The notes under the pieces were generated by a model. That model was not told the DNA's origin, made no database searches, and saw only the letters and a list, made by a program, of their open reading frames with translations. From a virus: a stretch of 64,000 nucleotides of DNA. The DNA lies in the IMG/VR virus record IMGVR_UViG_3300008107_000014, positions 51,208-115,207 of that record. One strand, given 5' to 3'. Shown one piece after another: positions 9,162 to 61,311 of the stretch. A program made the position numbers and the translations under genes. Within the stretch, counting starts at the first letter, position 1; every line of letters starts with the position of its first letter.

Positions 9162-9613
9162 GAAACTTCTGCTTTACCTGGGGCAATTTTCTTAACGTCA
9201 ACATATCCTGCCCCACGGCGATCCATGCTAACACCTTCCTCTTGTCCAATGTCTCCGCACAATGCACGGAACCATCGATCTGCAATTTCTTCATCTGGAT
9301 CACCATCATAGCCATATCCTTGCAACTTCAATTGTACAATAAACTCATCGTTCCAATCAAGCTCAAAGAATCCATTACGTAGATTGTCTTTGTTAACATG
9401 TGTGTCAAGTACAGCTACCCACGGCTCGCCCTTTTGTGTAGCACGTTCTTTAGGAGTTAACTTAGCTTCTGCTGCTTTTGCTTCAGCTGCAATTGCTTCT
9501 TCTAAATGCTGTTTAGCAATACTCTTTGCAGTCTCTGCTTCTGCTAGTGCGTTTTGTGTTGCATCTTCTAATGCTTGTAAGCCTGTAATCTTTTTAAAGA
9601 ATTGTTTAATCAT
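9158..9613 (-). CDS. hypothetical phage protein
   Basis: Likely start 9613 (TAATG overlap). GFFELDWN core. Confidence 0.65.
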   Translation of the reverse strand: MIKQFFKKITGLQALEDATQNALAEAETAKSIAKQHLEEAIAAEAKAAEAKLTPKERATQKGEPWVAVLDTHVNKDNLRNGFFELDWNDEFIVQLKLQGYGYDGDPDEEIADRWFRALCGDIGQEEGVSMDRRGAGYVDVKKIAPGKAEVS

Positions 9614-10467
9614 TAAGTTCCCCACTCATTTTTAAATAACGGTACTTGTAGTCTGTCGCTATAACGTAAACCGTTTTTCATTGCTAGTAATGCTACATTC
9701 TTATTGTTTAATGCGTAGACACTTTCAACACCACCTACCGGCATTAGATAAACATGTCCTTTAAAGCCTGCTTTGCGATATGCGGCAATAGCACATTCGG
9801 CATCGGTAAAATCTTGTTCTGTGGCAATAACAAATTTCAAATATGCTGTACCGAAATTTTCGTATTCACAAACTACTTCTGGAAGAATTGCTTCTTCCCA
9901 TTTCTCTCCACTACATGGTAGTTTAGCACTTACGCTAAATGTAACTTCTCTAGCAAAATCCATGTTAGGCATTTGCCATTCTACCAGATATTCTTTAAAC
10001 TCTTCTGTTAGCTTTTGAGTGCCATTTGTTTCAAATGTAATCTCTTTCAAGCCTGACATCTTAGGGTGACTCAACAAGTCTGGATAAGCACGTTGCCAAC
10101 CCAGCAATGGTTCACCGCCTGTGATAACAAGATGCTCGTCCTTCCAATGATCTTGCGGAAGTATTTCCATAATTCGATCTACGATAGCATCACTTGTAAG
10201 CATTGGACTAAGATCCTTAAAACTAGGATGCCAGCTAGCATAGCTATCACACCCCGTAGAAACCAAAGGTAGTTCTTCATATTTGTTATATAGATATGCA
10301 ACTTCTGCAATATCTTCAGCTTCGTTGCTTAATTCACCACGACTCATGCCAAAACCTGCACATTTAAAGTTACAACCAAATGTGCGTAAAAACACAGAAG
10401 GCACACCCATGTAGCGACCTTCACCTTGAATGCTGTAAAACAGCTCTGCGATTTTAATTTTACTCAT
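9613..10467 (-). CDS. queE: 7-carboxy-7-deazaguanine synthase (radical SAM QueE)
   Basis: ELFYSIQGEG, FLRTFGCNFKC...GCDS, ITGGEPLL, ETNGT, YLMP, RLQV. Confidence 0.92.
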   Translation of the reverse strand: MSKIKIAELFYSIQGEGRYMGVPSVFLRTFGCNFKCAGFGMSRGELSNEAEDIAEVAYLYNKYEELPLVSTGCDSYASWHPSFKDLSPMLTSDAIVDRIMEILPQDHWKDEHLVITGGEPLLGWQRAYPDLLSHPKMSGLKEITFETNGTQKLTEEFKEYLVEWQMPNMDFAREVTFSVSAKLPCSGEKWEEAILPEVVCEYENFGTAYLKFVIATEQDFTDAECAIAAYRKAGFKGHVYLMPVGGVESVYALNNKNVALLAMKNGLRYSDRLQVPLFKNEWGT

Positions 10468-10473
10468 ACGTTA

Positions 10474-10647
10474 TTATACACTCTTTTTTGTTAAAGTCCA
10501 AGAGCCATCCTTGTTATCTGTCCAAACAAGTGTATCTCCTTCTTTCCAACCTGCTTGTTCTAATAGCTCAGGCGGAAATGTTATTATTGCATCGCCGGTA
10601 TCTGGATCTTCCTCAACCGGTACAGTCCATTTAGATAAGTTGTTCAA
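10474..10647 (-). CDS. AbrB/MazE/SpoVT-like small DNA-binding protein (57 aa, not in ORF track)
   Basis: TTG start after AGGAG. (M)NNLSKWTVPVEEDPDTGDAIITFPPELLEQAGWKEGDTLVWTDNKDGSWTLTKKSV fits the swapped-hairpin pattern. Confidence 0.7.
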   Translation of the reverse strand: MNNLSKWTVPVEEDPDTGDAIITFPPELLEQAGWKEGDTLVWTDNKDGSWTLTKKSV

Positions 10648-11092
10648 CAGTTACTCCTGATTTTTCCAGAAACGTGATACCACTGGTATCCCTATAAGTG
10701 TTCCGATATAAAACACTGCTAATACCACTTTGGTAGATAAGTTTGGCACAGTCCAAACATGGAGCATGGGTAATAAACATAGTAGCACCCAAACCAGATT
10801 CGTTAGATTTAGCCAGTTTGGCAATCGCATTTGTTTCAGCATGTAATACCTCGGGTCTAGTTTTTAACTCACCGGTGTTGACTAACTTACTGCCAACACC
10901 GTATTCGGTTTGAAATTCTGTTACTTCATATTCACAGTTATTATCCCAACCTGCTGGCATACCATTGTAGCCAATAGAGATAATCCTATCATCTTTGGCT
11001 ACGATTGCACCTACATGCAATCGCCGAGCATGACTAAGCTCTGCAAATGTCTCCGCAGTTTTCATGTATGCTTGTTTTAATTTTTGTTTCAT
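10631..11092 (-). CDS. dCMP deaminase
   Basis: VGA..IGYNG, HAETNAI, THAPCLDC zinc motifs. Confidence 0.9.
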   Translation of the reverse strand: MKQKLKQAYMKTAETFAELSHARRLHVGAIVAKDDRIISIGYNGMPAGWDNNCEYEVTEFQTEYGVGSKLVNTGELKTRPEVLHAETNAIAKLAKSNESGLGATMFITHAPCLDCAKLIYQSGISSVLYRNTYRDTSGITFLEKSGVTVEQLI

Positions 11093-11277
11093 TCGGGTAG
11101 GCTTGTAAAGCGTTGTTCAAAACTTTCTATATAGCAACTATATTCTCTAGGCTCAAGAACTTTGTCATCTCGATAATGAACCCATGTATGTCCATCAACT
11201 TCAACTACATGGATTACAATAAATTTTTTATCAGTGCCTGAACCCCAACGACTTCCTGGTAAAATTTCTTTCTTCAT
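11089..11277 (-). CDS. hypothetical protein (small beta domain)
   Basis: ATGA overlaps on both sides. Confidence 0.6.
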   Translation of the reverse strand: MKKEILPGSRWGSGTDKKFIVIHVVEVDGHTWVHYRDDKVLEPREYSCYIESFEQRFTSLPE

Positions 11278-11807
11278 TTTGTCCACCACTCCTCATAAGG
11301 AAATTCAATCCAAACATCTTCTTCGGCTTTGTTTACTTCCATGCCCCAATAATTCATTGGAGCTTTACATTTACTAGATAGATTATCTACAATAACTGCA
11401 AATCGAACATTGTTATTCCAAATTTCTTCCCATCGTTCGTCATTTGGAAAACAACCACTCGGCCAGTCTTCCATAATCCAGTTTAGTGTACTACCTTGAT
11501 CATTGATATCGTCTACAATAAGGATATTTTTTCTACCATCACCTGATGACATTGGGTCGTGATTGATATACCCAAACGCATCTTCTGCCATACCTAGATT
11601 ACTAACGCATTCGCCTCCGTCACGCAGACTAACGTCTAATGATTGCATGGGTACATTTAAGTAATGACTAATCATAACAGCAGGTAGTAGCCCGCCTCTA
11701 GTTAATCCCACAACATAATCAGGTTTCCAGTTGCTTAATGCAATATCTCTACAAATCTTATTGACTAGACCTTTAAAGTCGTCATTGTTAATTACTAACT
11801 TTTTCAT
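11274..11807 (-). CDS. purine (xanthine/guanine-type) phosphoribosyltransferase
   Basis: VVGLTRGGLLPAVMISHYL, ILIVDDINDQGSTL (PRPP loop), WIEFPYE are Gpt-like. Confidence 0.85.
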   Translation of the reverse strand: MKKLVINNDDFKGLVNKICRDIALSNWKPDYVVGLTRGGLLPAVMISHYLNVPMQSLDVSLRDGGECVSNLGMAEDAFGYINHDPMSSGDGRKNILIVDDINDQGSTLNWIMEDWPSGCFPNDERWEEIWNNNVRFAVIVDNLSSKCKAPMNYWGMEVNKAEEDVWIEFPYEEWWTK

Positions 11808-12252
11808 ATCTTTCCTTAAGGTACTGCTCGTGTTGCACCCACTTATTATTAACTAAAAATCCCCATTCTCTTTTTTGAGGACCCGGCATAAACAAAGTCC
11901 AAGCAGTTATTCCAGGAACCAATTCGATACGATGATAGCTGTGAGAACTGCATAAGCGGAAGTGACCAGGACCACGCCAATGCTTTGTTTCTCCAACCAT
12001 TTTGCCATATTCGAAATTAGGAGTGTATTCATAGTAACCACCTTTGAGTATTAGTGTAGCATACGGCCACGGATGATCATGAACATCATCTGGGTCGCCC
12101 TTTAAAAACTTATGTAGGAATATATTAAATGGAAATGTTTTCCTATCTTTTAGAAACAAGTAATAGCGTTCAAGATACGGCTCGTCGCATTGACGATCCA
12201 TAACAATACGCTTACGACCTAGCCGATCTAAAAGATTAAGAAACCATTTCAT
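11788..12252 (-). CDS. cupin-fold (metal-dependent dioxygenase-like) protein
   Basis: HDHPW..TLILKGGYYE ... HRIEL ... WTLF cupin motifs. Confidence 0.7.
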   Translation of the reverse strand: MKWFLNLLDRLGRKRIVMDRQCDEPYLERYYLFLKDRKTFPFNIFLHKFLKGDPDDVHDHPWPYATLILKGGYYEYTPNFEYGKMVGETKHWRGPGHFRLCSSHSYHRIELVPGITAWTLFMPGPQKREWGFLVNNKWVQHEQYLKERYEKVSN

Positions 12253-12467
12253 TCTACATCCTCACTAAACCACTCGTCTACCATATCCTCGGCTTCGTCT
12301 TGTGTTAATGCAGGAACAAATAACCTTGCTGGTTGTCCTACAGTATGTTGAATATTAAAACGAACAATGCCAGTTGGAATTTGATCAAAGTCTCTTTCTA
12401 CAATAAATTCTTGAAGATTCTTTGCACGATAGATTAAATGATCTGTTAGGTCTTTAGCTGTTGTCAT
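12249..12467 (-). CDS. hypothetical protein
   Basis: 72 aa, ATGA overlaps. Confidence 0.6.
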   Translation of the reverse strand: MTTAKDLTDHLIYRAKNLQEFIVERDFDQIPTGIVRFNIQHTVGQPARLFVPALTQDEAEDMVDEWFSEDVE

Positions 12468-13162
12468 CTTGGGGCAAACTCCTGTTGTAGTTTAATGTTG
12501 TCAAAGAATTCCTTCTTTGTATGAGGATCATTTTTAAATGTTCCTTTTAATACTGTAGTCTGTGTTAGACTGCTATGTGCCATGATGCCGCGATTTTCAC
12601 AGCAACCGTGTGTTGCTTGAATGTAAACTGCTACGTTCTCTGAGTCAGTAGCTCGGCTAATCTCGCGGGCGATGTCGTTACAAAGTTCCTCCTGGAGAGT
12701 ACCCCGTCTTGCACACCACTGTGCGATTCTTGTGTACTTGCTAAGTCCGATAAGTTTTTCGGCAGCAATAATACCAATATAAGCAACGCCAGCCACAGGT
12801 TGGTGATGATGACTGCACATACTACGCAGCTCACTACGAACAACCAACATGCCTTCATAACGGTCTTGCGAGTCATTTGGAAACGCTGTTGCATCTGGGG
12901 CTGCTTCATATCTACCTGCCATTATTTCGTTAAAGTACATTTTAGCAAGTCTACGTGCTGTGCCCTTGCTGTTGGGATCGTTTTCACGATCAATAAGGAG
13001 TGCGTCGAGAACGCCTTCGAATGCTACTGTTGCTTCTTCAATAAGATAGTTTTTATCAAACTCATCTTTAACGTATTCGCTGATATTGTCACCAGCCCAA
13101 AAACGTTTGTTATCTCTTTTCATGTTTTCGCGGATAACTTGCGATAGATTTTTTTCTGACAT
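12464..13162 (-). CDS. folE: GTP cyclohydrolase I
   Basis: TARRLAKMY, SMCSHH, GLSKYTRI, LQEEL, HGCCENRG. Confidence 0.95.
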   Translation of the reverse strand: MSEKNLSQVIRENMKRDNKRFWAGDNISEYVKDEFDKNYLIEEATVAFEGVLDALLIDRENDPNSKGTARRLAKMYFNEIMAGRYEAAPDATAFPNDSQDRYEGMLVVRSELRSMCSHHHQPVAGVAYIGIIAAEKLIGLSKYTRIAQWCARRGTLQEELCNDIAREISRATDSENVAVYIQATHGCCENRGIMAHSSLTQTTVLKGTFKNDPHTKKEFFDNIKLQQEFAPR

Positions 13163-13198
13163 ATTTTCTCCGAGTTAATGTCGAGGATGACTTAGTAG

Positions 13199-14293
13199 TT
13201 ATTTTAAGTTGTCTAGTAGTCGACTACAACTGAAAAAGTTCTCTCTTAAAACATCTACCTGTTTATTTAGGCTAGGTAGACGAGATTTATAATTTTCCAT
13301 GTGTGTGACAATTTCTCTACACACGTCCGGACGATACTTGTTATATGAGTTCCAGCTTTCTGTCCACTCACTAGGATACTTAAACACATCCATGGCCATT
13401 TCGCTGTAGCTTAATCTATCCGGAACCATTGGGATTGCATCTACGATTGCACCTTCATACCAGCTAATACCTAAGGTCTCTTGTAAGTTTGCGCTGAACA
13501 CTAACTTAGCTTCGCCTAATAAATTGTGATATTCACGTTTAGTTAATTGCTGTTCTTGACAGATGACAAATTCGTATTGCGGTAAATGTTCTTTTAGGTC
13601 ACGGAAAATTTCAACTTGTTTTTCTGGGGCAATGCGATGTGGAAATAAAATAAGATCACGTTTTTCCATGCCTTTATACATAGACAACGTATCTTCCATG
13701 TATTCCATAGGCCATCCTGTGCGTACTACTTTATTATTGAACACAGTATCTTCTATCACAGTCTTATACATTGTTTGTCTACGATCTGGATCTGCTTGGA
13801 TCAAGTTTTTGTAAAACATATGAATGTGAAAGTCAGTGGCAAAGTAGTTGTGATCAAACGCATAATAGAAACTCTTCTCAGCATGTCTAACCCAAGGTTT
13901 ATCTCCTACAAGCCGTCCTAGGAAGTCTTGAGGATCATAACTGCCCGCATGCCATAGACCGTGAGTAGTTACTGGAATACTCAATAACTCACTCATGTAC
14001 TTTAAGTTTATAATACCTGGATGCCAAGCATCAGTAAAAATAAAGTGATCGCCGGGATGAACGGCTCCGCTACAAAATAAACGGCCCATCTGCTCAACTT
14101 GACTAGCCTTGTATATATTAGTGCCGCCAAAGTTAAGAAACGCTCCCGGAGTGGTAGCACTAGGAATGTCCGTAGGACCTGATATAACGTTGACATTGTG
14201 TCCCGCCTTTCGTAAGAGTGCAGGCAAGTGGGTTTTCCACTCGCCTGTGTACCTTGTTTCAACTGCTTCTAAATCAACAAGGTATATCGACAT
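13199..14293 (-). CDS. GT-B glycosyltransferase, GTDC1/QTMAN-like C-terminal domain
   Basis: ILFPHRIAPEKQ, KREYHNLLGEAKLVFSANLQETLGISWYEG (E-x7-E), PMVPDRLSYSEM. Start MSIYLVD at 14293 (TAATG overlap). Confidence 0.8.
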   Translation of the reverse strand: MSIYLVDLEAVETRYTGEWKTHLPALLRKAGHNVNVISGPTDIPSATTPGAFLNFGGTNIYKASQVEQMGRLFCSGAVHPGDHFIFTDAWHPGIINLKYMSELLSIPVTTHGLWHAGSYDPQDFLGRLVGDKPWVRHAEKSFYYAFDHNYFATDFHIHMFYKNLIQADPDRRQTMYKTVIEDTVFNNKVVRTGWPMEYMEDTLSMYKGMEKRDLILFPHRIAPEKQVEIFRDLKEHLPQYEFVICQEQQLTKREYHNLLGEAKLVFSANLQETLGISWYEGAIVDAIPMVPDRLSYSEMAMDVFKYPSEWTESWNSYNKYRPDVCREIVTHMENYKSRLPSLNKQVDVLRENFFSCSRLLDNLK

Positions 14294-14538: not shown

Positions 14539-14928
14539 TTAGTATTTGATGAATGAACCATTTTCTCCGTCTTCGGAGACCTCAATCCAAATCTCTCGAC
14601 CTGGATACTTATTGGAAATGCTGTCATATAAATCACCTGACATCATTTCACAACTCTTGTAATCTAGTTGTAGTGTACCTTCTTTGTAAAGGTTTTCCAA
14701 CCAGCGTTTAAATTGAATAAATTCAATATCGCGATCATCGTGTGTAACACTAATCCATACTTTGAAATGGAATGTGTGACGATGCGGATAACCTAGAAAA
14801 CTTACATCATATTCGTCGCCTGTAGCAAGATTAGGATCTGTAAGTGCTGCTGGATATTTGTGAATACCTTCTTTTTGCAAGGTAACCCAAATCATTTTGT
14901 TAGGACGAGTGTCTTGTCTAATAATCAT
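14539..14928 (-). CDS. dpdL: T-fold QueD paralogue, DpdL-type (predicted CDG decarboxylase)
   Basis: FLGYPHRHTFHF (L-x3-HRH-x-F) instead of the QueD C-x3-HGH motif, plus SCEMM and IEVSEDGENG T-fold motifs. A canonical QueD exists at 60745. Confidence 0.7.
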   Translation of the reverse strand: MIIRQDTRPNKMIWVTLQKEGIHKYPAALTDPNLATGDEYDVSFLGYPHRHTFHFKVWISVTHDDRDIEFIQFKRWLENLYKEGTLQLDYKSCEMMSGDLYDSISNKYPGREIWIEVSEDGENGSFIKY

Positions 14929-15152
14929 GATGCCAACAAACCCTTGCAAAGTTCTCCAATTTCTTCTTTAGTCATAAAGAAGTTATATGTACTTGCATGT
15001 TCTACGTTTCCGTCTTTATCAAGACATTCTTGAATAAAGTCGAGATTGTATAATCCTTTGGGACTAATTACTTCCCAAGTTTCTACACGCACTCTAAATG
15101 CACCATTATCTTTAATGGTAAAATTGTTAATTTTTAAACTTTCATGTAACAT
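14925..15152 (-). CDS. hypothetical protein
   Basis: 75 aa, translationally coupled on both sides. Confidence 0.6.
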   Translation of the reverse strand: MLHESLKINNFTIKDNGAFRVRVETWEVISPKGLYNLDFIQECLDKDGNVEHASTYNFFMTKEEIGELCKGLLAS

Positions 15153-15454
15153 TATCGTAATCCTTCCACTGTAATAATTTTGCTTAGTTCTTCGCCTAAG
15201 TCTTTATCATCCATTATAACATAAATTGCATTCTTATGTCTATCGTTTACGTTATCGTATTTGTTCAATTCAATAATAGTTCCACCAGTTGCCTTGTGTA
15301 CTTTAAAATTAAATCCGTGATTGTCTATAGTACGTTCACTGCTCATAGAGATGCCTTTGCTAAGTCTAGGTCGATTTACATGGATATCTTCTTCACGAAT
15401 TTTATCCCAGTCTTCGCGAACCCAGCGGACAATGATTTTTTTAAACCAGTTCAT
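15152..15454 (-). CDS. hypothetical protein
   Basis: About 100-aa ORF in the operon. Confidence 0.6.
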   Translation of the reverse strand: MNWFKKIIVRWVREDWDKIREEDIHVNRPRLSKGISMSSERTIDNHGFNFKVHKATGGTIIELNKYDNVNDRHKNAIYVIMDDKDLGEELSKIITVEGLR

Positions 15455-15989
15455 TTTCTTCAATACTCCATAGTTTTCCTTCAGATGATTCTTCTACATC
15501 AAACAGGCTGTTAAATTCATTGATCTGCATAGTTCGAATATCTAATCCCCACTTATGAAAAACTTTGTCTGCTAAAAACGAGTGTGAATATTGTTCAGAC
15601 GGTATTCCAAAAGGACAGTTTCCACTATTTGCGGCAGAATATGGTTGTTCTAATTCACATTTAGTAATCAATAAATTTGATGATGTTATTATGTTGTTAA
15701 TTGTGGTTAGTAATTCTTCTTCGGGAATTTTAAACATTTCGGTCTGTGATGAAATGTTATTGAGGTATTTGCCAGATTTATATATCAGGGCTTGTTTAAT
15801 CTTTGATTCCAATCTGCCTATATCTCTAGGTGCTCCGAAATAAACATGATTAAGACTAAACTCCTTAGAACAAAACTTTTGTCTAGCTCTAACAGCAGAA
15901 TACGGCGTCATAGCTACTCCAATCTTTTTCCAATTAGAGTCTCCGTTTAAATCGTCGTGTATGTAAAAGAAAAAACTTTTTTCGTTCAT
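15441..15989 (-). CDS. GIY-YIG / T5orf172-like nuclease
   Basis: FFYI...WKKIG..(P)..R, LESKIK, TEMF pattern typical of T5orf172/MUG113-type GIY-YIG. Confidence 0.6.
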   Translation of the reverse strand: MNEKSFFFYIHDDLNGDSNWKKIGVAMTPYSAVRARQKFCSKEFSLNHVYFGAPRDIGRLESKIKQALIYKSGKYLNNISSQTEMFKIPEEELLTTINNIITSSNLLITKCELEQPYSAANSGNCPFGIPSEQYSHSFLADKVFHKWGLDIRTMQINEFNSLFDVEESSEGKLWSIEENELV

Positions 15990-16537
15990 TTTAAAATCTC
16001 GTCCTTTCTATATTTGTCCCAGCTTGTAAACTTATCTCGTCCGAGCAAGTCGTGTAGGTTGTGACACCATACACCGGGATTAGTTGCATTAAAATCTTTG
16101 TCGTCTAACTTAATTGTAGCATTATACCCTAGCTGTTGCAAATAGGGTAGCTTTACTGAAATTTGCGGAATGAACTGTTGCTTCTCTACAAGTCCGCTTT
16201 CTAACAATCCTTCAACATCTCTCACGTCAAGATCTAATGTACACCAGTATCCTGCTTCAAGACAAACGTATATCATATCTTCCCACGGACGCCATGTGTC
16301 TACATCGTTAGTTCCATTAGGTTTAAAACTTTGATTAGCGCCAAAGTAGATATGTTTAATTTTTTTAGATTCGTCTACATATGACTTTGTATCATCAGCA
16401 ATATGCAATATTGTATACGGATCGTGAACGCCTACAACAAACAGTGTTTCCATTCCGTATGCAGGCGTAGTTTCAATTTCCTTACCTGTGAAGAAGGTAA
16501 TAGATTCGGCTTTGCCGGTATTATAATCTCGTTTCAT
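15986..16537 (-). CDS. conserved-looking hypothetical protein in the deazaguanine cluster
   Basis: 183 aa, alpha/beta pattern (TLFVVG, HIYFGANQSF, WCTLD, KLDDKDF..TNPGVWCH). Confidence 0.7.
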   Translation of the reverse strand: MKRDYNTGKAESITFFTGKEIETTPAYGMETLFVVGVHDPYTILHIADDTKSYVDESKKIKHIYFGANQSFKPNGTNDVDTWRPWEDMIYVCLEAGYWCTLDLDVRDVEGLLESGLVEKQQFIPQISVKLPYLQQLGYNATIKLDDKDFNATNPGVWCHNLHDLLGRDKFTSWDKYRKDEILK

Positions 16538-16704
16538 TTTGTCTTTCTAAAAAGATTTTTAATTGATTGAACTAGATTGTAATATCTAGCTTTATACGGA
16601 TCGCCAATAATTAAATCAATCATTGGCGGGTGGAGTGGACAGCGACCTTGTTTAAAGTCGCAGTCCGGAGTGTACTGCTTATTACAAACGGTACAATGTT
16701 TCAT
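16534..16704 (-). CDS. small Cys/His (zinc-binding?) protein, 56 aa, not in ORF track
   Basis: MKHCTVCNKQYTPDCDFKQGRCPLHPPMI...; fills the gap exactly, ATGA overlap with the next gene. Confidence 0.6.
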   Translation of the reverse strand: MKHCTVCNKQYTPDCDFKQGRCPLHPPMIDLIIGDPYKARYYNLVQSIKNLFRKTK

Positions 16705-16706
16705 AG

Positions 16707-18263
16707 TTAGTCACTGTTAAGTTGTTGTTCTAGTTTACGAAGGTCGTCGTCATCTTGTTGATCAAAAATCGGTTGTCCGTCTTTATCGTATTGCAATTGT
16801 TTGTGTCCATCAACTATAAACAAACTATTAAATTCGTTATCAGCAGGACCGCCTTGTAGTCTAGCACCTTCTAATGCTTTTAAGAAACCTTTGGCATTAA
16901 AAATAAGTTGAAACGCTTCGTCTTTGGTTTTAGTATTAAACAATTCTTCAATGAATGTTGCAAAGTAAAGAATCTTACGAGGTACCCAATCACTGTATTC
17001 AGTTTCTTTCTTACCTTCTAGACTCCACATGCGCCAATCTGGTTTGTACTTAGCACACTCAATGTCCATGTATTGCTGGGCACGTTGTACTGCCTTAATA
17101 TGACACTCAACATTATGACCCATCATTAATGCATAAGCAAAACTATCCCAACTAGTTTTACCTTCTTTTTTAATTTTGTTTAACATGCCTGGTGCATAGT
17201 AACATACATCGCCCATTGCTAATCTACTGCCAACTTCACTTTCGAATGGGAACGGTATATCGGAGCCTGAAAGAGCCTTGGTATCTGGCGCTTTGTCCAT
17301 GATAACTGACCATCGTTTGTTTGTGTGTTGAGCGTTTGTGTAGACAAGTCCATGTGCCGTTGCAATGAACGGTGAGGCGCAATCAAAAGAGATGGTAAGT
17401 TCTTCATTAATGTGCTTTCGTATTTGACGTTGAATTAAAGTTAAGTAGCAAGACCAATCTAATTGAGCAGTGCCCAAGAAGTGGATCCAATTTTTGCCTT
17501 TCAGCAAACCGTCTTCACGCATCGTCATTAGACGTCTAAGCGTAATATCCATTTTACACATGTTAGCACCACCAAAGGCCCAACCTTCTGCGGCTTTATC
17601 ACCCCAGACTTTTTCATCGCTAAATTCTTTAACACCGTTGTACCACGTCTCCGCAGTTTCCCAGTTACTACCTTGTAGCACGTTTAAGAACTTAGTAGTT
17701 TTACCGTCTCGGTTCTCTAAAAAGAACTTATTGTTAAATTTAGTTTTATTCAAACAATCGTCAAAATCTTTTAATCCTGTCTTAGGCGCATGGATGTGAT
17801 CGCAGGCCCAAGTAGGAACGTCTAACATCATTGACCAGTCTGCGGTAAGTTCAAGCCAACGAAGAATGTCTAAGCGTGTTTTGTTTGCACTAGGACCATC
17901 AAAGTTCAGCCAGTCAAACTTAAGAACACCTTTACCAATCTGATACCCACCTGAATCTCCAACAATAACAGTATTGTCTCTGTCACGTTGTTGAATCATT
18001 GCCTCTTGAATAACACTTTTTTCAAGATTAAGTTGTGCATGACCTGCTGAGTACAGACCGTATTTGTATGTAAAGTATCCTTGTTCGGGATTTAAAAAGT
18101 TCATGCCTTCAATGCCTCTATCAAATCCGTCGGGGATTCGATCCGCAGCAATAAATTCTTCTACACGTTGCTTTGCAATGTATGTGCTATAAAAAGAACT
18201 GATAGCTGGCAAGTATACTGCGTAGTCTTTCTGTAATGGTGATAAGTTAACTGGTGGTTTCAT
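16707..18263 (-). CDS. dpdA: TGT-fold DNA deazaguanine transglycosylase (DpdA family)
   Basis: All TGT catalytic motifs in order: GDSGGYQ, MLDVP, NVLQG, GWAFGG, IHFLG, SFDCAS, GHN. Lacks the CxCxxC zinc motif of tRNA TGTs. Clustered with folE and queE. Confidence 0.8.
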   Translation of the reverse strand: MKPPVNLSPLQKDYAVYLPAISSFYSTYIAKQRVEEFIAADRIPDGFDRGIEGMNFLNPEQGYFTYKYGLYSAGHAQLNLEKSVIQEAMIQQRDRDNTVIVGDSGGYQIGKGVLKFDWLNFDGPSANKTRLDILRWLELTADWSMMLDVPTWACDHIHAPKTGLKDFDDCLNKTKFNNKFFLENRDGKTTKFLNVLQGSNWETAETWYNGVKEFSDEKVWGDKAAEGWAFGGANMCKMDITLRRLMTMREDGLLKGKNWIHFLGTAQLDWSCYLTLIQRQIRKHINEELTISFDCASPFIATAHGLVYTNAQHTNKRWSVIMDKAPDTKALSGSDIPFPFESEVGSRLAMGDVCYYAPGMLNKIKKEGKTSWDSFAYALMMGHNVECHIKAVQRAQQYMDIECAKYKPDWRMWSLEGKKETEYSDWVPRKILYFATFIEELFNTKTKDEAFQLIFNAKGFLKALEGARLQGGPADNEFNSLFIVDGHKQLQYDKDGQPIFDQQDDDDLRKLEQQLNSD

Positions 18264-18612
18264 ATTCTCTCGATAATTTTATTGTTACGTCTAATTGACG
18301 TTTTGCCTGTTCTAGATTGTCTAGTGCTATTTTAACAGCTTTGTTCTCAGAAGCCAAGCTTTCCCAAGCCCGTTCTTCGTCACGTTTTTTACGTGCCCAT
18401 TGTATGCTATCTAAAACATCTTGATCCATAGTAACTGTGGCATAACTGCTTGATAGCTGTTGCCAACTACTTCCGTTGAACACTTCAAGTTCTGTCATAT
18501 TAATACGTACCATACCTGTCATTGGATTACTGCTGTTAGGTGGCACATAAGGCAGAGTTGTATTTCCGCCTGATACTGTAATACCGCATGTGCCCATTAG
18601 ACCTTTAATCAT
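18247..18612 (-). CDS. hypothetical protein
   Basis: Start MIKGLMG after AAGGA. C-terminal coiled coil. Confidence 0.65.
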   Translation of the reverse strand: MIKGLMGTCGITVSGGNTTLPYVPPNSSNPMTGMVRINMTELEVFNGSSWQQLSSSYATVTMDQDVLDSIQWARKKRDEERAWESLASENKAVKIALDNLEQAKRQLDVTIKLSREYETTS

Positions 18613-18664
18613 AGTTAAATCCTTTACAAGTAGTGTACAGCCACAGCAAGGTTTTTGCAACCGT

Positions 18665-19432
18665 TTAGAGCAAACATACTTTATTGACTATTTCAGTAGC
18701 CCATGCAGCTATAGTTTTTGGACCCGCATGTAACCCATCGGCGGCTCGATCAGTATACTTGGGTAAACAGTCTGCATCTATCCACCGTGTACTATTAGAG
18801 TTTTCAACAACGGTAAATGTATAAAACGGTACGTGTTGCCAGATATGCGTAATACTAGCCCATTGCAATGCTCCATGTACTTCAGCATTGGGTTCGTGGT
18901 GTATCCAACCTTTATAACAATCATCGATGCCCTCGGGCAATTGTTCTTGATGAGATGTTAACATGCTGGCTAGCCATTGAGAACGCTGTATGGCCTGAGA
19001 CATGTGTACTGTGTTAGTTGGCACCATATGCACAGGTGATGACCATGTAAAATATGCCAATCGTGTAAGCTCTGGTGCAACCAATATAACAGCACGTGGT
19101 CGAATACCTTGTTTTACTAGAGCTAGGCTATTGTACAGTTGCACAGTCATACTACTAGCACAATAGCCTAGATTGATTACAGGACAATTGAGCATATGCT
19201 TTAACTGCCCTGGCAAACTATGCTCTACATTTACACCTACACCTAACACATGGCTACAACCTAAGACTATCACACTGTCGGACCATGTAATACTGTCCCA
19301 TTCATCGGTGCGATAGCCATTGCTGTTAAATTGATAGTTAATCTTGCCTGAGATATCTGTAGTACACTGATTACCTGACTGATAAGGAGAGGGTAATAGT
19401 AAGTGAGACTCGTCCCAGGGCAAGTTTTTCAT
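18665..19432 (-). CDS. SGNH-hydrolase-like protein
   Basis: YQFNSNGYR, VLGCSHVLG (GDS-like block I), INLG, terminal DGLH (DxxH). Confidence 0.55.
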   Translation of the reverse strand: MKNLPWDESHLLLPSPYQSGNQCTTDISGKINYQFNSNGYRTDEWDSITWSDSVIVLGCSHVLGVGVNVEHSLPGQLKHMLNCPVINLGYCASSMTVQLYNSLALVKQGIRPRAVILVAPELTRLAYFTWSSPVHMVPTNTVHMSQAIQRSQWLASMLTSHQEQLPEGIDDCYKGWIHHEPNAEVHGALQWASITHIWQHVPFYTFTVVENSNSTRWIDADCLPKYTDRAADGLHAGPKTIAAWATEIVNKVCLL

Positions 19433-19435
19433 ATT

Positions 19436-20176
19436 TTAGACAGCTTGTGCTGGAATAATATATTTGTAAGTTGCTAAACCGCTATCTAATGTAATTTGAA
19501 TAGCACCTTCATTTGACAAACTCATCTTTGTATTATTAGCATCGGCATTGCTTAGGATGCTCATGATCGGAGCAACCGGCCATGTCCAGCCGCGATCTAA
19601 TTTACCTGCAACATTTGATGCAAATACAAACTCACCACCGTGTGTGCTAGCATCACCAAAGATAAACTTTAAATTGCCGCTGTCGGTCTTAGCCAAGAAT
19701 GTTGGCTGTTCATTATTAGCACCAGCTTGGAATTTAAAACGCTTGACTGCTTCAACAGTTGGCTCAACTTCAACATCCCACTTGACGCCACGGAACTTAA
19801 CAGTCTTCATCTTTTCGTTGATGATTTCTGTGTTCATAAAGCGATAATCATTTTTAAAATCGCTGTCTTTGTTTTCAAAGTGCAATCCTGTTGGAACAGT
19901 TGCTCCGTTGCGTTCTGCTGTAGTAACAGCAATTTTAGCATCGTCTTTGTAGACATCGCCGTCTAACAAATATTTCAATTTGTTAAGCTGTGGCATACCA
20001 AATACACCTAGCATCTGTGGATATGGATTAGCAGTCTCTGCTTCCATAATAACAGAACGATTGTCTGCCATTGCATTTAATACAGTCTTTTCGTCTGTAC
20101 CAGTTACTTTAACTGTAGTAAGCAATCCGCCAATATCATGTGTGTGGCGAACGATGTCTTGTAAAATATCTTTCAT
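19436..20176 (-). CDS. gp45: DNA sliding clamp (gp45/PCNA-like)
   Basis: 246 aa with a two-domain beta/alpha pattern and a PCNA-like C-terminus (YKYIIPA). Lies directly downstream of the DNA polymerase. Confidence 0.7.
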   Translation of the reverse strand: MKDILQDIVRHTHDIGGLLTTVKVTGTDEKTVLNAMADNRSVIMEAETANPYPQMLGVFGMPQLNKLKYLLDGDVYKDDAKIAVTTAERNGATVPTGLHFENKDSDFKNDYRFMNTEIINEKMKTVKFRGVKWDVEVEPTVEAVKRFKFQAGANNEQPTFLAKTDSGNLKFIFGDASTHGGEFVFASNVAGKLDRGWTWPVAPIMSILSNADANNTKMSLSNEGAIQITLDSGLATYKYIIPAQAV

Positions 20177-20236
20177 TGAGAATTCTCCGTTAGTGTTAAG
20201 ATTATATTTAGATCGTTGACAAAGAGCAAATTAATT

Positions 20237-22903
20237 TTACTCAAAATCAAACAATTTTCCGAATGTGTTGTCACTGCGAGTTGAGCTGATGTCCCATTCC
20301 AAGACACCGATCAAGTTTTCTAGCTTTTCGTCGATAACTGCATTTTCCATATCAGCATCGTTAAAAGGCATGTCCTTAAACCACTGAGGTAATCTAAGTT
20401 CATCTACAGGATACGCTACACTAGTATACCCCATTGGATTGTCTTTAATTTTACAAACAATTACTTTTGCACCGTCTGTAATATTCATTGAATACTTGTC
20501 ATCCATCATACGCTTTAAAGTATTCCAATTCAAACTAGCACGGACATGTCCGGGCATATTTGTTTTTCCTGCTTTCTTTTCTTTGTTAGCGTATTCTGTA
20601 ATGTTGTTAGCACGTTTAGGACTACCTTTCTCCCAACCAGGTCTTGTTTTAAACTCAGTTCGAAAATTAGTAATGTATTCAAGCACATCTTCTTGGGTAC
20701 CATTATTTAGGACCATAGTTAGTACTTCACTTAAAAAGTCTTGAATAACAACAGGCGTATCACTACGCTTAAGGTCTAAGCCCATGGCCTTAATCTTACC
20801 AGGCTTGCCGTCTACGTCTGCTCGTTTGCCTTCCTTGTCATAGTAAAGTACTGCATATCGTTTCTTCGTGATGAACAGTCCGCGACTTGCAACAATTTCA
20901 CGACCAGCTTTAATAACTTCGCCACGTGACTTTGGACAATGAAATGCGTCTTGCATAAATTTAGGAAACGTATCGTTGACTTCTTCACCAATTTGATCAT
21001 AGAGTTGAACAACACTTTCTTTGGTCCACGGCAATCGTCCAGCATCGATTTCTTTTCTTAATGTTGGATATGCTGTAAAGTAACATGAGTCAGTGTCACC
21101 GTAGATAATTGCTTTACCAATATGATTATTTTCACCAGTAACAATTTCGTTGACTTTTCCTGCCATATGTTGTGCAATTGCACGACCTGTTAGTGTAGTT
21201 GATTGTCCGATTCGGTTATCAAAAAATCTACAACCAGGGTTAAGAATAGCACCATACAAACTGTTAAGCAAAATCTTTTTAACTAGCTGACGTTTATCCC
21301 AGTATTCTTCTTCAATCTTATTGCCTGCTTTAATACAGTCTTTAAGTTTAGCCTGCATCTCTTTACGTTCGGCATACCAACGCTTTAGTAATCCAGGAAT
21401 AATGCCTTCAATTTCGTAGGTAAAGATTGTGCCGTTGGCACTTAGCATCCAAGGTTGATTGCTGTCAAAGATTAAATCATATACCTGTGCCGCAGACAAC
21501 GTATCGCTGCCTCCGTTTGCCCAATCAATGGTTAACTCACGTCCTACCTCTTTGGCCATGACACTTGTGTATTCTACTGCACCAAACATTCCTTCCCATG
21601 CAGCCGCAAAACTTTTACCTTTTGCAATCTCTGCATCGATATATGCCTTGGTTCCGTCTTGACGTAACTGTCCAATAATAGTTTCTGGACCCATGTTCAA
21701 TGCACGAATTGCTGAGGGATACAGTGAGTTAATGTCAAGTGACCCAATCCATTCGTGAATGCCCTTCTTTGGATATGCAACATACGCACCTGCCGCAGGT
21801 TCACTACCTGGCTCACGTTGTATACGGTTAGGAACAATCATTCCTCGGCGATGTGCCTCGTTAATAATAGCCTGTTCGGTTACAGCTACAGCACCCATTG
21901 TCGTTGCCAACAGCACTGTGTTTTCATGAGCAATGGTATTTGCAAGGTCTAAGAATTTTAATTTTTTATCTAGCTTGTCTAACAGCAATGTATCTTGCCT
22001 GTTGTATTCAATAAACTTACGGAAGTCTTCGTTATACAACTGATCTAGTGTACCTTCGTAGACTGTCTTTGTATCGCCAATTTCCATTTCTGCAATAGCA
22101 TCAAGTCGATAAGTGTGACGTTCTTCATAGGTATACTTACGGTACAGTTCTAAGCTATCTAAGTGTACACGCCCAATAAAGTCATAGGTAACAGCAGCTT
22201 TACCATATTTTTCATATTCTCGTTTCTTTGGAAATTGATTCCATAGACAAAATCTGCGTGTGTCGTCTTTGCTTAGTACTTTAATGACACGATTAACAGT
22301 GTAGGGAATATCAAAGCCTTCACTGTTCCAGCCACTTAATACATCCGCATCGTCAATTAAGTTTAAAAATGTATCGAGCATTTCTGCTTCGTTGTCAAAC
22401 AAAAATGTATTAGGAAAGTCTTTAACTGATTCTTTGGCCTGCACCATTGAAATAGTCTTTGGCGGTATTGCCAAGGTGATTAAACTATCAAGCCATTGTA
22501 AGTATACTGTGATAGCTGTAATTGGCATGAATGCATCGTCTGGTGCCGCATAGCCGCGTTCTGGATCAAAGTCTACTTCGATGTCAAAGAAACAAACGTT
22601 TAGTTTTGGAGCATCAACATTTAAATAGTTTTCTTCAAAACAACGGAATACAGGTTTAATGTCTGATTCGTATAGTTTCTTACCGCTATAAGCTCTTAGT
22701 TCTTTGTGGAGGTCTTTAAGGTTTCTGCAATTAACTCGTGTTAACGGTTCGCCGAAAATTGATTTGTGTTTTCCTCTTGAATCTTGATAATAAAAGAGGT
22801 GTTTTGCGGGGTATTCTTTATAGTGACGTTGCCCTTTTTCGTCACGCTCAACAACGTTGATAATATCATTATCGCGGTCGTAGAAAGCATCTACGTAGCT
22901 CAT
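20237..22903 (-). CDS. gp43: family B DNA polymerase
   Basis: Exonuclease FDIE, WNSEGFDIPY, YNRQD; polymerase DINSLYPS, KKILLNSLYG, YGDTDS, KKRYA. Confidence 0.97.
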   Translation of the reverse strand: MSYVDAFYDRDNDIINVVERDEKGQRHYKEYPAKHLFYYQDSRGKHKSIFGEPLTRVNCRNLKDLHKELRAYSGKKLYESDIKPVFRCFEENYLNVDAPKLNVCFFDIEVDFDPERGYAAPDDAFMPITAITVYLQWLDSLITLAIPPKTISMVQAKESVKDFPNTFLFDNEAEMLDTFLNLIDDADVLSGWNSEGFDIPYTVNRVIKVLSKDDTRRFCLWNQFPKKREYEKYGKAAVTYDFIGRVHLDSLELYRKYTYEERHTYRLDAIAEMEIGDTKTVYEGTLDQLYNEDFRKFIEYNRQDTLLLDKLDKKLKFLDLANTIAHENTVLLATTMGAVAVTEQAIINEAHRRGMIVPNRIQREPGSEPAAGAYVAYPKKGIHEWIGSLDINSLYPSAIRALNMGPETIIGQLRQDGTKAYIDAEIAKGKSFAAAWEGMFGAVEYTSVMAKEVGRELTIDWANGGSDTLSAAQVYDLIFDSNQPWMLSANGTIFTYEIEGIIPGLLKRWYAERKEMQAKLKDCIKAGNKIEEEYWDKRQLVKKILLNSLYGAILNPGCRFFDNRIGQSTTLTGRAIAQHMAGKVNEIVTGENNHIGKAIIYGDTDSCYFTAYPTLRKEIDAGRLPWTKESVVQLYDQIGEEVNDTFPKFMQDAFHCPKSRGEVIKAGREIVASRGLFITKKRYAVLYYDKEGKRADVDGKPGKIKAMGLDLKRSDTPVVIQDFLSEVLTMVLNNGTQEDVLEYITNFRTEFKTRPGWEKGSPKRANNITEYANKEKKAGKTNMPGHVRASLNWNTLKRMMDDKYSMNITDGAKVIVCKIKDNPMGYTSVAYPVDELRLPQWFKDMPFNDADMENAVIDEKLENLIGVLEWDISSTRSDNTFGKLFDFE

Positions 22904-22915
22904 TGTATTCTCCTA

Positions 22916-22963
22916 TGTCATTTACGGCTGACAAACACCAAACATGCGGTTTATGGCCCGCAT
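22916..22963 (-). promoter_or_regulatory. tandem RNA hairpins directly 5' of the DNA polymerase SD (candidate translational operator)
   Basis: AUGCGG-GCCAUAAA-CCGCAU and UGUCA-GCCGUAAA-UGACA, followed by UAGGAGA..AUG. Confidence 0.7.
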
Positions 22964-22970
22964 ACCTTGC

Positions 22971-23264
22971 TTAAAAATTATTTATCATCCTTATATAGGC
23001 AATTAAGTCTATACTGGCAATTAGTGCATAGTTAGCAATCATACCGGTGCTGCCTCTAGTCCAAGCAGCCCATGCAAATATTGTACACTGGAACACGAAT
23101 AACGGATATAGGTATATAAACGGCGGATTGGGCAATGTATATCCCATCCAGATTGTGCAACCTATACTCATTGTCCATGCCAATAGCTCTAATGTGAATC
23201 TTAGAGGATAGCTAGCGTAATCCTCTTTGATCCAAATAATTGTCGGCTTAAGCGAATCTATCAT
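22971..23264 (-). CDS. small multi-pass membrane protein
   Basis: 97 aa with three hydrophobic segments. Confidence 0.7.
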   Translation of the reverse strand: MIDSLKPTIIWIKEDYASYPLRFTLELLAWTMSIGCTIWMGYTLPNPPFIYLYPLFVFQCTIFAWAAWTRGSTGMIANYALIASIDLIAYIRMINNF

Positions 23265-23604: not shown

Positions 23605-24525
23605 TTACTTTGTTTCTGATAGTACGTCGAATAGTTGGAATTCGCCACCCATGCGTTCGTAAACAAATGCTGCCATTGCGTCTGCTGACACACCTTCTTG
23701 CACTTTGCTAACTGCAACACGTTGAGCCCACTTCCATAAAGCGCCATCAACTGGATCGATCTGTTGTTGACCACCGCTTTCTTTAACTAACTGTAGGCAT
23801 TGTTTGAATGAATACTTTTGTTGTACGCTTTCTTTAACTGGACGCTTCTTGCCTTTTGGCATCATTGCACTTTCGGTCTTCTTACCAAAATACTTGGCTT
23901 GCTTATCGCTCATGCCTTTCTTTCCGTCTTTCTCTTCACCTGACTCTTCGCTATCATCAGCTTCTGTATCTTTGCCTTTACCGAGATCATTCTTACCCTT
24001 ACCATCGGCTGCAAATGCTGGAACTTTCTTTCCGTTTACTGTGGTCATTGGCAAACCGCCTTCTGCCATTTTCTTTTTCTTAGCGTCTTTCTTCTTGTCA
24101 GCTTCTTCTTTCTTAGCTTCAACCATTGATTGGAACTTAGAACGTGCAGCTTTTTGAGCTGCTGTAGACTCTTCAACACCTTTCTTAGCGGCTTTCTTAG
24201 CAGCTTTTTCGTCTGCTTCGTCGCTGTCTTCTTCTTTATCTTCGTCTGAGCTACCACCGTAGGCCTTGCCTTTTACAGCAGTTCCTGTGTGTGACTTACC
24301 GGACTTGTCTGTCCATGATTTGTCAGCTTTAGTAGCTTCTTTAACTGTTTCATCTTTAGCTTTACGTCCTTCTTCAAGGATTGAGCTAACACCTGCTAAA
24401 ACTCTCATTTGAGCGTCTTCTGCAAGTACAACCTTTGGTTGTTGTGTTGATTGGCTGCTCGCTACCGCTGTCTTTTCGACTGGGTTAATAGAGTCCAATT
24501 TCTGTAGCATTTTGTGAAAGTCCAT
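23605..24525 (-). CDS. highly charged Lys/Glu-rich protein, probable prohead core/internal protein
   Basis: Low complexity, repeated V/L-x-E sites (VKE, VEE, LEE, LSE), TAAATA upstream. Confidence 0.55.
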   Translation of the reverse strand: MDFHKMLQKLDSINPVEKTAVASSQSTQQPKVVLAEDAQMRVLAGVSSILEEGRKAKDETVKEATKADKSWTDKSGKSHTGTAVKGKAYGGSSDEDKEEDSDEADEKAAKKAAKKGVEESTAAQKAARSKFQSMVEAKKEEADKKKDAKKKKMAEGGLPMTTVNGKKVPAFAADGKGKNDLGKGKDTEADDSEESGEEKDGKKGMSDKQAKYFGKKTESAMMPKGKKRPVKESVQQKYSFKQCLQLVKESGGQQQIDPVDGALWKWAQRVAVSKVQEGVSADAMAAFVYERMGGEFQLFDVLSETK

Positions 24526-60744: not shown

Positions 60745-61311
60745 TTATGCCTCATAACTTGCGGAGTTAGCTTGGTGTTCAAATACTTCCACTGAACGAA
60801 GTTTAACACCCTTGCCTACAGGATAACGGCACTCAAACATTTTACCATTTTCTAAAGTGTAAGATTCTCCGCGTTGGAATGTTTCTAGAATATCTTTCAT
60901 TTTCATAAAAGCAGTTTCACTAAACTTTTCGCAACCAACCGCTTCTACAATACGTAGATCACATATTGCTCCACGTTCATGAGGGGCACCTTCAGGTCCT
61001 GTTCCAGTGCCGCTAGTAGGAGGATCTCCTAAATTGGCCATCTGTTTAAAGAAATTCAAATGTGGGTCATCTTCAGCAATTACCAAAGTATGATCGAACA
61101 TGTATTCGCTCCACTCTTTAAATGCTTTGAGTCCGCCAAAGTCCATGACCCAGTTACGATCGTCTAATGTTTCAGATTCAAATATTAATTTAATTCCGAT
61201 TGAATAGCCGTGTAGTGTTGAACAATGGCTGTGGCGACTACGCCATTGTCTAAAACAACAAGATAAACCCCTGTCGTTGCCGTACGTTTTTGTTGAAAGA
61301 TATTTTGCCAT
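60745..61311 (-). CDS. queD: 6-carboxy-5,6,7,8-tetrahydropterin synthase
   Basis: HCSTLHGYS (C-x3-HG), NWVMDFGGLK, FDHT, GCEKF, VEVFE. Confidence 0.88.
   Translation of the reverse strand: MAKYLSTKTYGNDRGLSCCFRQWRSRHSHCSTLHGYSIGIKLIFESETLDDRNWVMDFGGLKAFKEWSEYMFDHTLVIAEDDPHLNFFKQMANLGDPPTSGTGTGPEGAPHERGAICDLRIVEAVGCEKFSETAFMKMKDILETFQRGESYTLENGKMFECRYPVGKGVKLRSVEVFEHQANSASYEA

Follow-up and report, generated by a model that had tools for sequence, protein, structure and literature searches.

A polymerase-type tail peptide on a DpdA-like putative transglycosylase of uncultured jumbo phages: a candidate tether to the phage's own PCNA-fold clamp

DpdA enzymes are believed to introduce 7-deazaguanine modifications into DNA that has already been replicated, and the route by which some phages arrive at near-complete replacement of guanine is an open question. 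The DNA analysed here is a stretch of 64,000 nucleotides (the window), positions 51,208 to 115,207 of the virus record IMGVR_UViG_3300008107_000014, a partial contig of about 115 kb with 116 predicted proteins. The window comes from an uncultured jumbo phage, a distant relative of Pseudomonas phage PA5oct, and forms a module for replication and DNA modification. In it a 518-residue DpdA-like protein, a putative DNA 7-deazaguanine transglycosylase, and a T5orf172-like protein of 182 residues share a short tail peptide with the family-B DNA polymerase. Does this peptide tie base modification to the sliding clamp, as was proposed in a first-pass annotation of the DNA? The best reading of the sequence comparisons presented here is that it probably docks on the phage's own PCNA-fold clamp.

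The three copies of the motif fit the pattern F-x-x-L-F-x-[FVI]-[DE] and lie on the minus strand exactly where they were first reported (Table 1). They were originally described as C-terminal motifs in flexible tails. The tails are flexible, but only the polymerase copy is terminal. The other two are internal to their tails, with the F-x-x-L-F core 36 residues ahead of the C-end in the DpdA-like protein, and with 16 residues downstream of the motif in the 182-residue protein. In an AlphaFold2 model of the DpdA-like protein the predicted local distance difference test score (pLDDT) is 46-51 across residues 470-490, falling below 50 at 473-479 and 483-487. Folding of the motif into the tRNA-guanine transglycosylase (TGT) core, which the annotation had named as fatal to its proposal, is not seen in the model, where the motif is a low-confidence segment that does not pack on the core.

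Short hydrophobic motifs are common. The likeness was compared with shuffled sequences. F..LF.[FVIWYLM] occurs in the last 50 residues of 4 of the 116 contig proteins, compared with 0.29 in shuffles, and none of 300 shuffles reached 4. For the looser F..[LMIF]F, tails show no enrichment (4 vs. 2.4 expected). A position matrix trained solely on 30 distinct polymerase tails gave scores of 17.9 for the 182-residue protein and 11.1 for the 518-residue protein; the genome-wide maximum in shuffled proteomes had a median of 6.0, a 95th percentile of 12.0 and a maximum of 14.0. Since the DpdA-like match is borderline when taken alone, comparative evidence was needed, and it is conservation in relatives that makes the match solid. 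The DpdA-like and 182-residue copies have seven residues in common, and their DNA differs at synonymous codon positions; they did not therefore arise by a recent DNA duplication.

The DpdA-like family is very large in metagenomes, where more than 7,600 matches remain after clustering at 90% and 900 representatives after clustering at 50%. A close set of 80 IMG/VR loci, at 72-83% identity, holds 58 distinct DpdA-like tails. Every complete polymerase in this set ends with N-x-F-x-x-L-F-x-F-[ED], and the DpdA-like tail contains N-[TE]-F-x-x-L-F-x-[FVI]-[ED], or the variant N-K-D-L-F-D-W, followed by a poorly conserved acidic stretch. L481 and F482 are 93% conserved, compared with 34-50% for their neighbours, and thus form an island in a variable tail. 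Among the full-length representatives of the 50% clusters (30-50% identity), 41 of 114 have the motif in the last 50 residues, compared with 9.0 in shuffled sequences (maximum 18). It is mostly present in the nearer homologues, and it is kept, often at the extreme C-end, in the distant clades of PA5oct, Vibrio phage 2.275.O and two metagenomic groups. The polymerase end in PA5oct is F-D-S-L-F-G-W and the DpdA-like tail has F-N-S-L-F-D-V-D. In Vibrio phage 2.275.O the two proteins have T-D-L-F-D-W and N-D-L-F-G-W, respectively, both at the extreme C-end. In a metagenomic clade at 36% DpdA-like identity the polymerase ends L-F-D-F, and the transglycosylase-like protein L-F-D-F-[DES] or a shortened form of it. 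Conservation in DpdA homologues, one of the checks suggested at the outset, is thus found in close relatives and in five distant clades; the shorter distant homologues are mostly without the motif.

A second suggested check was co-variation of the motif with the polymerase tails. The DpdA-like and polymerase tails do track each other across clades, but not one-to-one inside the close clade. In a further metagenomic clade the two genes are tens of kb apart, and adjacency is therefore no explanation of the likeness of their tails. Three related genomes of that clade have F-D-S-I-F in both proteins, F-G-N-L-F-E in both, and F-D-S-L-F vs. F-E-N-L-F. One relative (L074) has an L-to-F change in both tails alike. 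For 51 distinct pairs the motif identity within the same genome was 5.53/10, compared with 4.87 when permuted, and none of 5000 permutations reached it, in a test that ignores kinship between genomes.

The C-end of T4 gp43 is established to bind the gp45 clamp. The parallel first drawn with gp43 was borne out by an alignment of six polymerase C-ends including that of T4, in which the window tail lies at the position of the gp43 end, ...S-L-D-F-L-F-G; clamp structures are available in the PDB as 1czd, 1b77 and 1b8h. As annotated, a clamp gene lies between the polymerase and the 518-residue gene, from which it is separated by two more genes. The AlphaFold2 model of its 246-residue product, built as a monomer (pLDDT 90.4), has a PCNA-type fold. 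The top 50 Foldseek matches are all PCNA (probability 1.0, E 1e-11), and VIA comparison with PCNAs gave Z of 17-18 over 220+ of the 246 residues with a root-mean-square deviation of 3.1-4.0, indicating a two-domain fold over the full length. The protein falls in no named family of Pfam or PHROGs, its sole match being an unnamed PHROG. A profile search of PDB sequences with the clamp alignment returned only noise, and hhalign of the family with T4 gp45 gave a probability of 1.4%. As sequence kinship to gp45 is not demonstrable, the clamp assignment rests on the fold. All the clades examined have the polymerase and clamp genes as a pair. In clamps from five clades, Y-R-F-M ahead of the interdomain connector is invariant, as is Y-x-Y-I-x-P-A at the C-end, which is reminiscent of the Y-L-A-P-K segment of the PCNA pocket. 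In PA5oct (MK797984.1 216595-222648) the polymerase is annotated as two pieces around a homing-endonuclease gene, and the clamp homologue, of 248 residues, only as a "structural protein", from virion mass spectrometry.

The 518-residue protein was modelled from an alignment of 75 diverse homologues (pLDDT 91.7), with a folded core of residues 1-465. The top 50 Foldseek matches are all tRNA-guanine transglycosylases (probability 1.0). A VIA-wide comparison, independent of Foldseek, gave Z scores of 19.1 for archaeosine TGT, 17.9 for bacterial TGT, 17.8 for QTRT2, 16.2 for the DNA preQ0 insertase DpdA (7ui4) and 14.4 for Cap10, with generic barrels at 12 or less. The designation DpdA in the first-pass annotation agrees with a TGT fold among 7-deazaguanine genes, but by fold the protein resembles bacterial DpdA no more than it resembles tRNA TGTs. 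D103-S-G-G (D103, S104, G106) and D294 are invariant in the 75 sequences and may correspond to the active-site loop and second conserved Asp of TGTs. Pfam, including TGT (PF01702), and PHROGs gave no match to the protein, and when the DpdA-like alignment was used as a profile against PDB sequences it gave only noise; membership in the TGT superfamily is assigned from the fold. The likeness of the family to phiST DpdA3 is weak (hhalign probability 81% over just 83 aligned columns, 259 vs. 518 residues). The DpdA3 class (phiST CGPG_00065 type) was considered for the protein and dropped; DpdA3 is at best a distant relative. With tblastn up to E 10 the additional matches were weak TGT-like ones in other jumbo phages.

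The virus itself encodes a linkage to 7-deazaguanine synthesis, with FolE, QueE-like and PTPS genes and a QueD-fold paralogue in the window, and the same linkage with a DpdA-like gene is present in PA5oct and Vibrio phage 2.275.O. No QueC was recognised in this gene set. From the modelled fold and the gene context, DpdA-like is a reasonable functional name. No DpdB-like partner turned up in general scans of the window proteins, which included no search aimed at DpdB. The deazaguanine system of PA5oct has been noted before (PMC7824862). The DNA of this phage resists restriction at G sites and is attacked by nucleases that sense G modification, and thus behaves as G-modified (PMC12191111).

Two unrelated protein families have the same tag, which counts in favour of clamp docking. 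One is that of the 182-residue protein, which probably has a T5orf172/MUG113-type domain of the GIY-YIG superfamily and is a putative nuclease. Its Pfam match to T5orf172 is below threshold (E 0.037, 15 bits vs. a cut-off of 20), and MUG113 was matched in 1 of 48 family members (E 0.0011). In the ESM Atlas it resembles T5orf172/MUG113 clusters with a feature score of 0.93, 175-176 shared features and template modelling (TM) scores of 0.56-0.74, and R34, R36 and E84 are invariant in the family. Among 52 homologues at 42-61% identity, 43 have the motif within the last 20 residues, compared with 3.0 when shuffled. Conservation of F159 and F163 is 90% or more, and the linker ahead of the motif is variable in length. 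This protein had been called the nuclease of the modification cluster, a view that must be abandoned. Neither its gene nor that of a 255-residue protein (18665-19432, minus strand) has a homologue in the 80 related loci, and the genes flanking the former abut directly in 33 of 34 relatives. The gene of the 182-residue protein is thus a sporadic insertion, peculiar to this genome and outside the modification cluster. The same junction carries a 3.2-kb insertion in one relative (L071), and seems prone to gain genes by insertion.

The other family is that of an FkbM-type methyltransferase of 354 residues (PF05050, E 1e-20), picked out by the polymerase-trained matrix in a 98%-complete, 353-kb relative, IMGVR_UViG_3300044640_001495 (L124:16996-18060, minus strand), where it ends F-E-S-L-F-D-F-G. 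All 39 complete homologues, from 40 IMG/VR loci, end F-x-x-L-F-D-F-G or the shortened L-F-D or L-F-S. The gene is not on the partial contig of the window. The methyltransferase is a possible second clamp-tagged modification enzyme. Two genes from it, a 172-residue protein (L124:14496-15014, minus strand) ends H-F-N-S-I-F-D-S-E, with a score of 7.6, within the range of shuffles.

Clamp docking would work as follows. The peptide would bind in the partner-binding pocket of the phage's PCNA-fold clamp, presumably a trimer, which would be placed at primer ends by the phage RFC-like loader. The putative transglycosylase would ride beside or behind the polymerase, as it could because a clamp of this kind has three pockets and clamps stay on finished DNA, would scan the new duplex in one dimension, and would replace guanine by the 7-deazaguanine base that the phage makes. 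Other DNA-acting proteins would be recruited through the same tag, the T5orf172-like protein here and the FkbM-type methyltransferase in relatives. Physical binding, co-replicative action, processive scanning, any self/non-self effect and high substitution are all features that we infer. The wider proposal is that the PCNA-like clamp is a hub for DNA-hypermodification tools in a sizeable group of jumbo phages, most of them uncultured, with the tag present on the guanine-exchanging enzyme of TGT type, on the FkbM-type methyltransferase and on the T5orf172-type protein, and that docking is required for efficient, replication-coupled, processive base exchange. We advance it tentatively, as a conjecture that may well prove too broad.

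Several observations weigh against docking on the phage clamp. In the window alone the score of the DpdA-like motif is just below the 95th percentile of shuffles. The motif is missing in about two-thirds of the distant DpdA-like homologues, which are shorter (median 461 residues). Strict residue-by-residue co-variation is lacking in the close clade, where the D-L-F-D-W variant coexists with L-F-D-F-E polymerases, and the permutation test, as stated, sets kinship aside. The tag lacks the Gln of the PCNA-interacting protein (PIP) box. Finally, in T4, binding of alpha-glucosyltransferase to the clamp reportedly does not chiefly set the level of modification (PMC13216743).

What the comparisons demonstrate is the sharing of the tag rather than its receptor. 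The tagged proteins could attach through the peptide to a different component of the replisome (for example the single-strand-binding protein, helicase or clamp loader), or the peptide could be a signal for localization or turnover. The methyltransferase and the T5orf172-like protein are not classical clamp clients, and the DpdA-like tail may make additional contacts, as its other conserved element, an acidic helix, suggests. We nevertheless consider this explanation unlikely, since T4/RB69, archaeal and eukaryotic polymerases of family B have C-tails that are established clamp ligands, the polymerase and clamp genes stay paired across the clades examined, and a hydrophobic core with an acidic flank is typical of clamp ligands.

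It is less probable still that the peptide binds the host beta clamp (DnaN), so that the enzymes would be recruited to host-type clamps. The [SD]-L-F core is similar to the last residues of the consensus for binding to bacterial beta clamps, Q-L-[SD]-L-F, and E. coli Pol II, also a family-B polymerase, ends in a beta-clamp-type motif. The DpdA-like homologue of Sinorhizobium phage Phosso likewise ends G-L-F and has no adjacent clamp homologue. However, the Q anchor is absent from all 30 distinct polymerase tails, the phages have a loader and a PCNA-fold clamp of their own, with the clamp gene immediately following that of the polymerase, and the tail is positionally equivalent to that of T4 gp43, which is the ligand of a phage clamp. 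That the motif differs between phage clades is neutral between host and phage clamps, as the hosts of the metagenomic clades are not known. Chance, or a functionless relic of local duplication, is a very remote explanation in spite of the unenriched looser pattern and the borderline DpdA-like score, as the motif persists in families at 30-50% identity even though its position and the length of its linker vary, is present where the genes are far apart, differs at synonymous sites between the window copies, and occurs in numbers that shuffles never reached.

The tag that probably docks on the phage clamp has several counterparts among known systems. The T4/RB69 gp43 tail occupies the same place, at the very C-end of a family-B polymerase that belongs to the same PHROG, and likewise has a hydrophobic x-x-[LM]-F core among acidic residues, and T4 gp43, gp55 and gp33 provide an example of one tag common to several unrelated proteins of one phage. 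The T4/RB69 ligand is gp45 (RB69 complex 1b8h), whereas the clamp here has no sequence likeness to gp45, and its listed fold matches are all PCNAs. The candidate clients are DNA-modifying or DNA-acting enzymes rather than transcription factors. PCNA has clients with PIP boxes, among them DNMT1, FEN1, archaeal RFC-L and polymerase tails. These share with the present case a PCNA-fold clamp, a short motif on a disordered tail and, if docking occurs, the coupling of modification and nuclease enzymes to replication, but the tag lacks the conserved Q and has the spacing F-x-x-L-F instead of Q-x-x-[LIM]-x-x-[FY]-[FY]. The bacterial beta-clamp motif, Q-L-[SD]-L-F, has the same [SD]-L-F core and is often C-terminal; here there is no Q anchor and the phage has its own PCNA-type clamp.

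A precedent for a phage DNA-modification enzyme physically linked to a phage sliding clamp is the alpha-glucosyltransferase of T4, which binds gp45 (Sommer et al., 2004, cited in PMC13216743, where co-purification was confirmed). It was proposed to act concomitantly with replication, and promoter strength weighed more than the gp45 interaction (PMC13216743). This enzyme transfers sugar to hydroxymethylcytosine rather than exchanging a base, and the passages of PMC13216743 consulted mention no polymerase-like linear motif for it. As for known DpdA enzymes (bDpdA, 7ui4; phage DpdA1-DpdA4; PMC6884629, PMC10516641), the likeness lies in the TGT fold and the FolE, QueE and QueD-fold neighbours, and phiST DpdA3 adjoins polymerase genes as the 518-residue gene does. 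The latter differs in having no Pfam TGT match, about twice the length of phiST DpdA3, and a clamp-type tail. In the paper that defined DpdA3 and DpdA4 the word "clamp" appears 0 times, and reconstitution of both enzymes in E. coli failed (PMC10516641). A full-text literature search for DpdA with "sliding clamp" gave two papers, both unrelated to judge from title and abstract, and found no paper describing a clamp tail on DpdA. The claim of novelty made at first therefore stands for DpdA itself, but not for a clamp-bound modification enzyme (PMC13216743); given the T4 precedent, what is new would be an enzyme class among clamp clients.

A clamp tag on a transglycosylase would provide a concrete and testable mechanism, namely recruitment to newly made DNA combined with one-dimensional scanning. 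If the clamp is indeed a hub, very high guanine replacement would be explained without modified deoxynucleoside triphosphates. The list of sliding-clamp clients would be extended to a base-exchange enzyme, and phages would appear to link marking of an epigenetic type with replication, in much the way that PCNA and DNMT1 do in eukaryotes. The hub might also bear on the failure of DpdA3 and DpdA4 in E. coli (PMC10516641), with the phage clamp and loader as the component missing from reconstitution. As PA5oct is cultured and has the same arrangement, experiments are feasible.

Table 1. Features of the window, with coordinates counted from its first nucleotide
Feature	Coordinates	Strand	Basis or remark
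Family-B (T4 gp43-like) DNA polymerase, 888 residues	20237..22903	-	Pfam DNA_pol_B E 1e-34; phrog_262 E 2e-199
Polymerase motif D-N-T-F-G-K-L-F-D-F-E	20240-20272	-	Last 11 residues, then stop
PCNA-fold sliding clamp, 246 residues	19436..20176	-	AlphaFold2 model, Foldseek, VIA
TGT-fold, DpdA-like putative DNA 7-deazaguanine transglycosylase, 518 residues	16707..18263	-	AlphaFold2 model, Foldseek, VIA
DpdA-like motif D-N-E-F-N-S-L-F-I-V-D	16809-16841	-	Residues 475-485
Second DpdA-like tail element F-x3-D-D-D-x-L-R-x-L-E	16728..16766	-	Residues 500-512; D505 97%, L511 98%
T5orf172/MUG113-like (GIY-YIG superfamily) protein, 182 residues	15441..15989	-	ESM Atlas likeness; sub-threshold Pfam
Motif of the 182-residue protein, N-E-F-N-S-L-F-D-V-E	15492-15521	-	Residues 157-166
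gp44/RFC-like clamp-loader ATPase, 304 residues	40208..41122	-	phrog_168 E 6e-75; Pfam AAA, DNA_pol3_delta2
GTP cyclohydrolase I (FolE), 7-deazaguanine synthesis step 1	12464..13162	-	PF01227 E 2e-40
QueE-like radical-SAM enzyme	9613..10467	-	phrog_2076 E 5e-50
QueD-fold paralogue within cluster	14539..14928	-	tblastn match to phiST gene beside its DpdA3
PTPS/QueD	60745..61311	-	PF01242 E 1e-12
dCMP/cytidine deaminase-family protein	10631-11092	-	Between QueE and FolE
Phosphoribosyltransferase-domain protein	11274-11807	-	Between QueE and FolE
Glycosyltransferase-like gene, 364 residues	13199-14293

The second element of the DpdA-like tail is predicted to form a short helix, residues 506-517 in the model. 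A similar element is found in PA5oct and in several representatives at 40-50% identity, and it is absent where the motif is at the extreme C-end. The Phosso homologue (11998-13647, 29% identity) ends I-V-E-G-L-F; its gene adjoins primase, DnaB and a DnaE-like fragment, without an adjacent PCNA-fold homologue, and it may belong to a different clamp system. A 240-residue neighbour in Phosso was considered as a clamp and rejected, as it has no homology to clamps.

Two further proteins with tag-like segments were set aside. A 306-residue protein (window 23605-24525, minus strand) has the conserved end G-G-x-F-x-[LM]-[FY]-D-V-L-[SA]-E-x-x-K, with a tag-like L-F-D-V core; because the residues are spaced differently and a strongly conserved segment lies immediately ahead of the motif, the protein was not counted as a client. 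Upstream of the window, a 1141-residue protein (contig 15999-19424, plus strand) has Q-E-F-G-S-L-F-E-I 48 residues from its end, with a score of 7.8, within shuffles and probably due to chance. It precedes a giant protein of 4636 residues.

Megablast of window positions 15000-23000 against a phage collection gave zero matches, and Pfam and PHROGs gave nothing for the 518-, 255-, 137-, 183-, 182- and 103-residue proteins. Every gene from 12.4 to 23 kb is on the minus strand. The QueD-fold paralogue of the cluster has no Pfam match; by tblastn it also matches PA5oct, Phosso and others. The deaminase, phosphoribosyltransferase and glycosyltransferase-like genes hint at extra tailoring or precursor handling.

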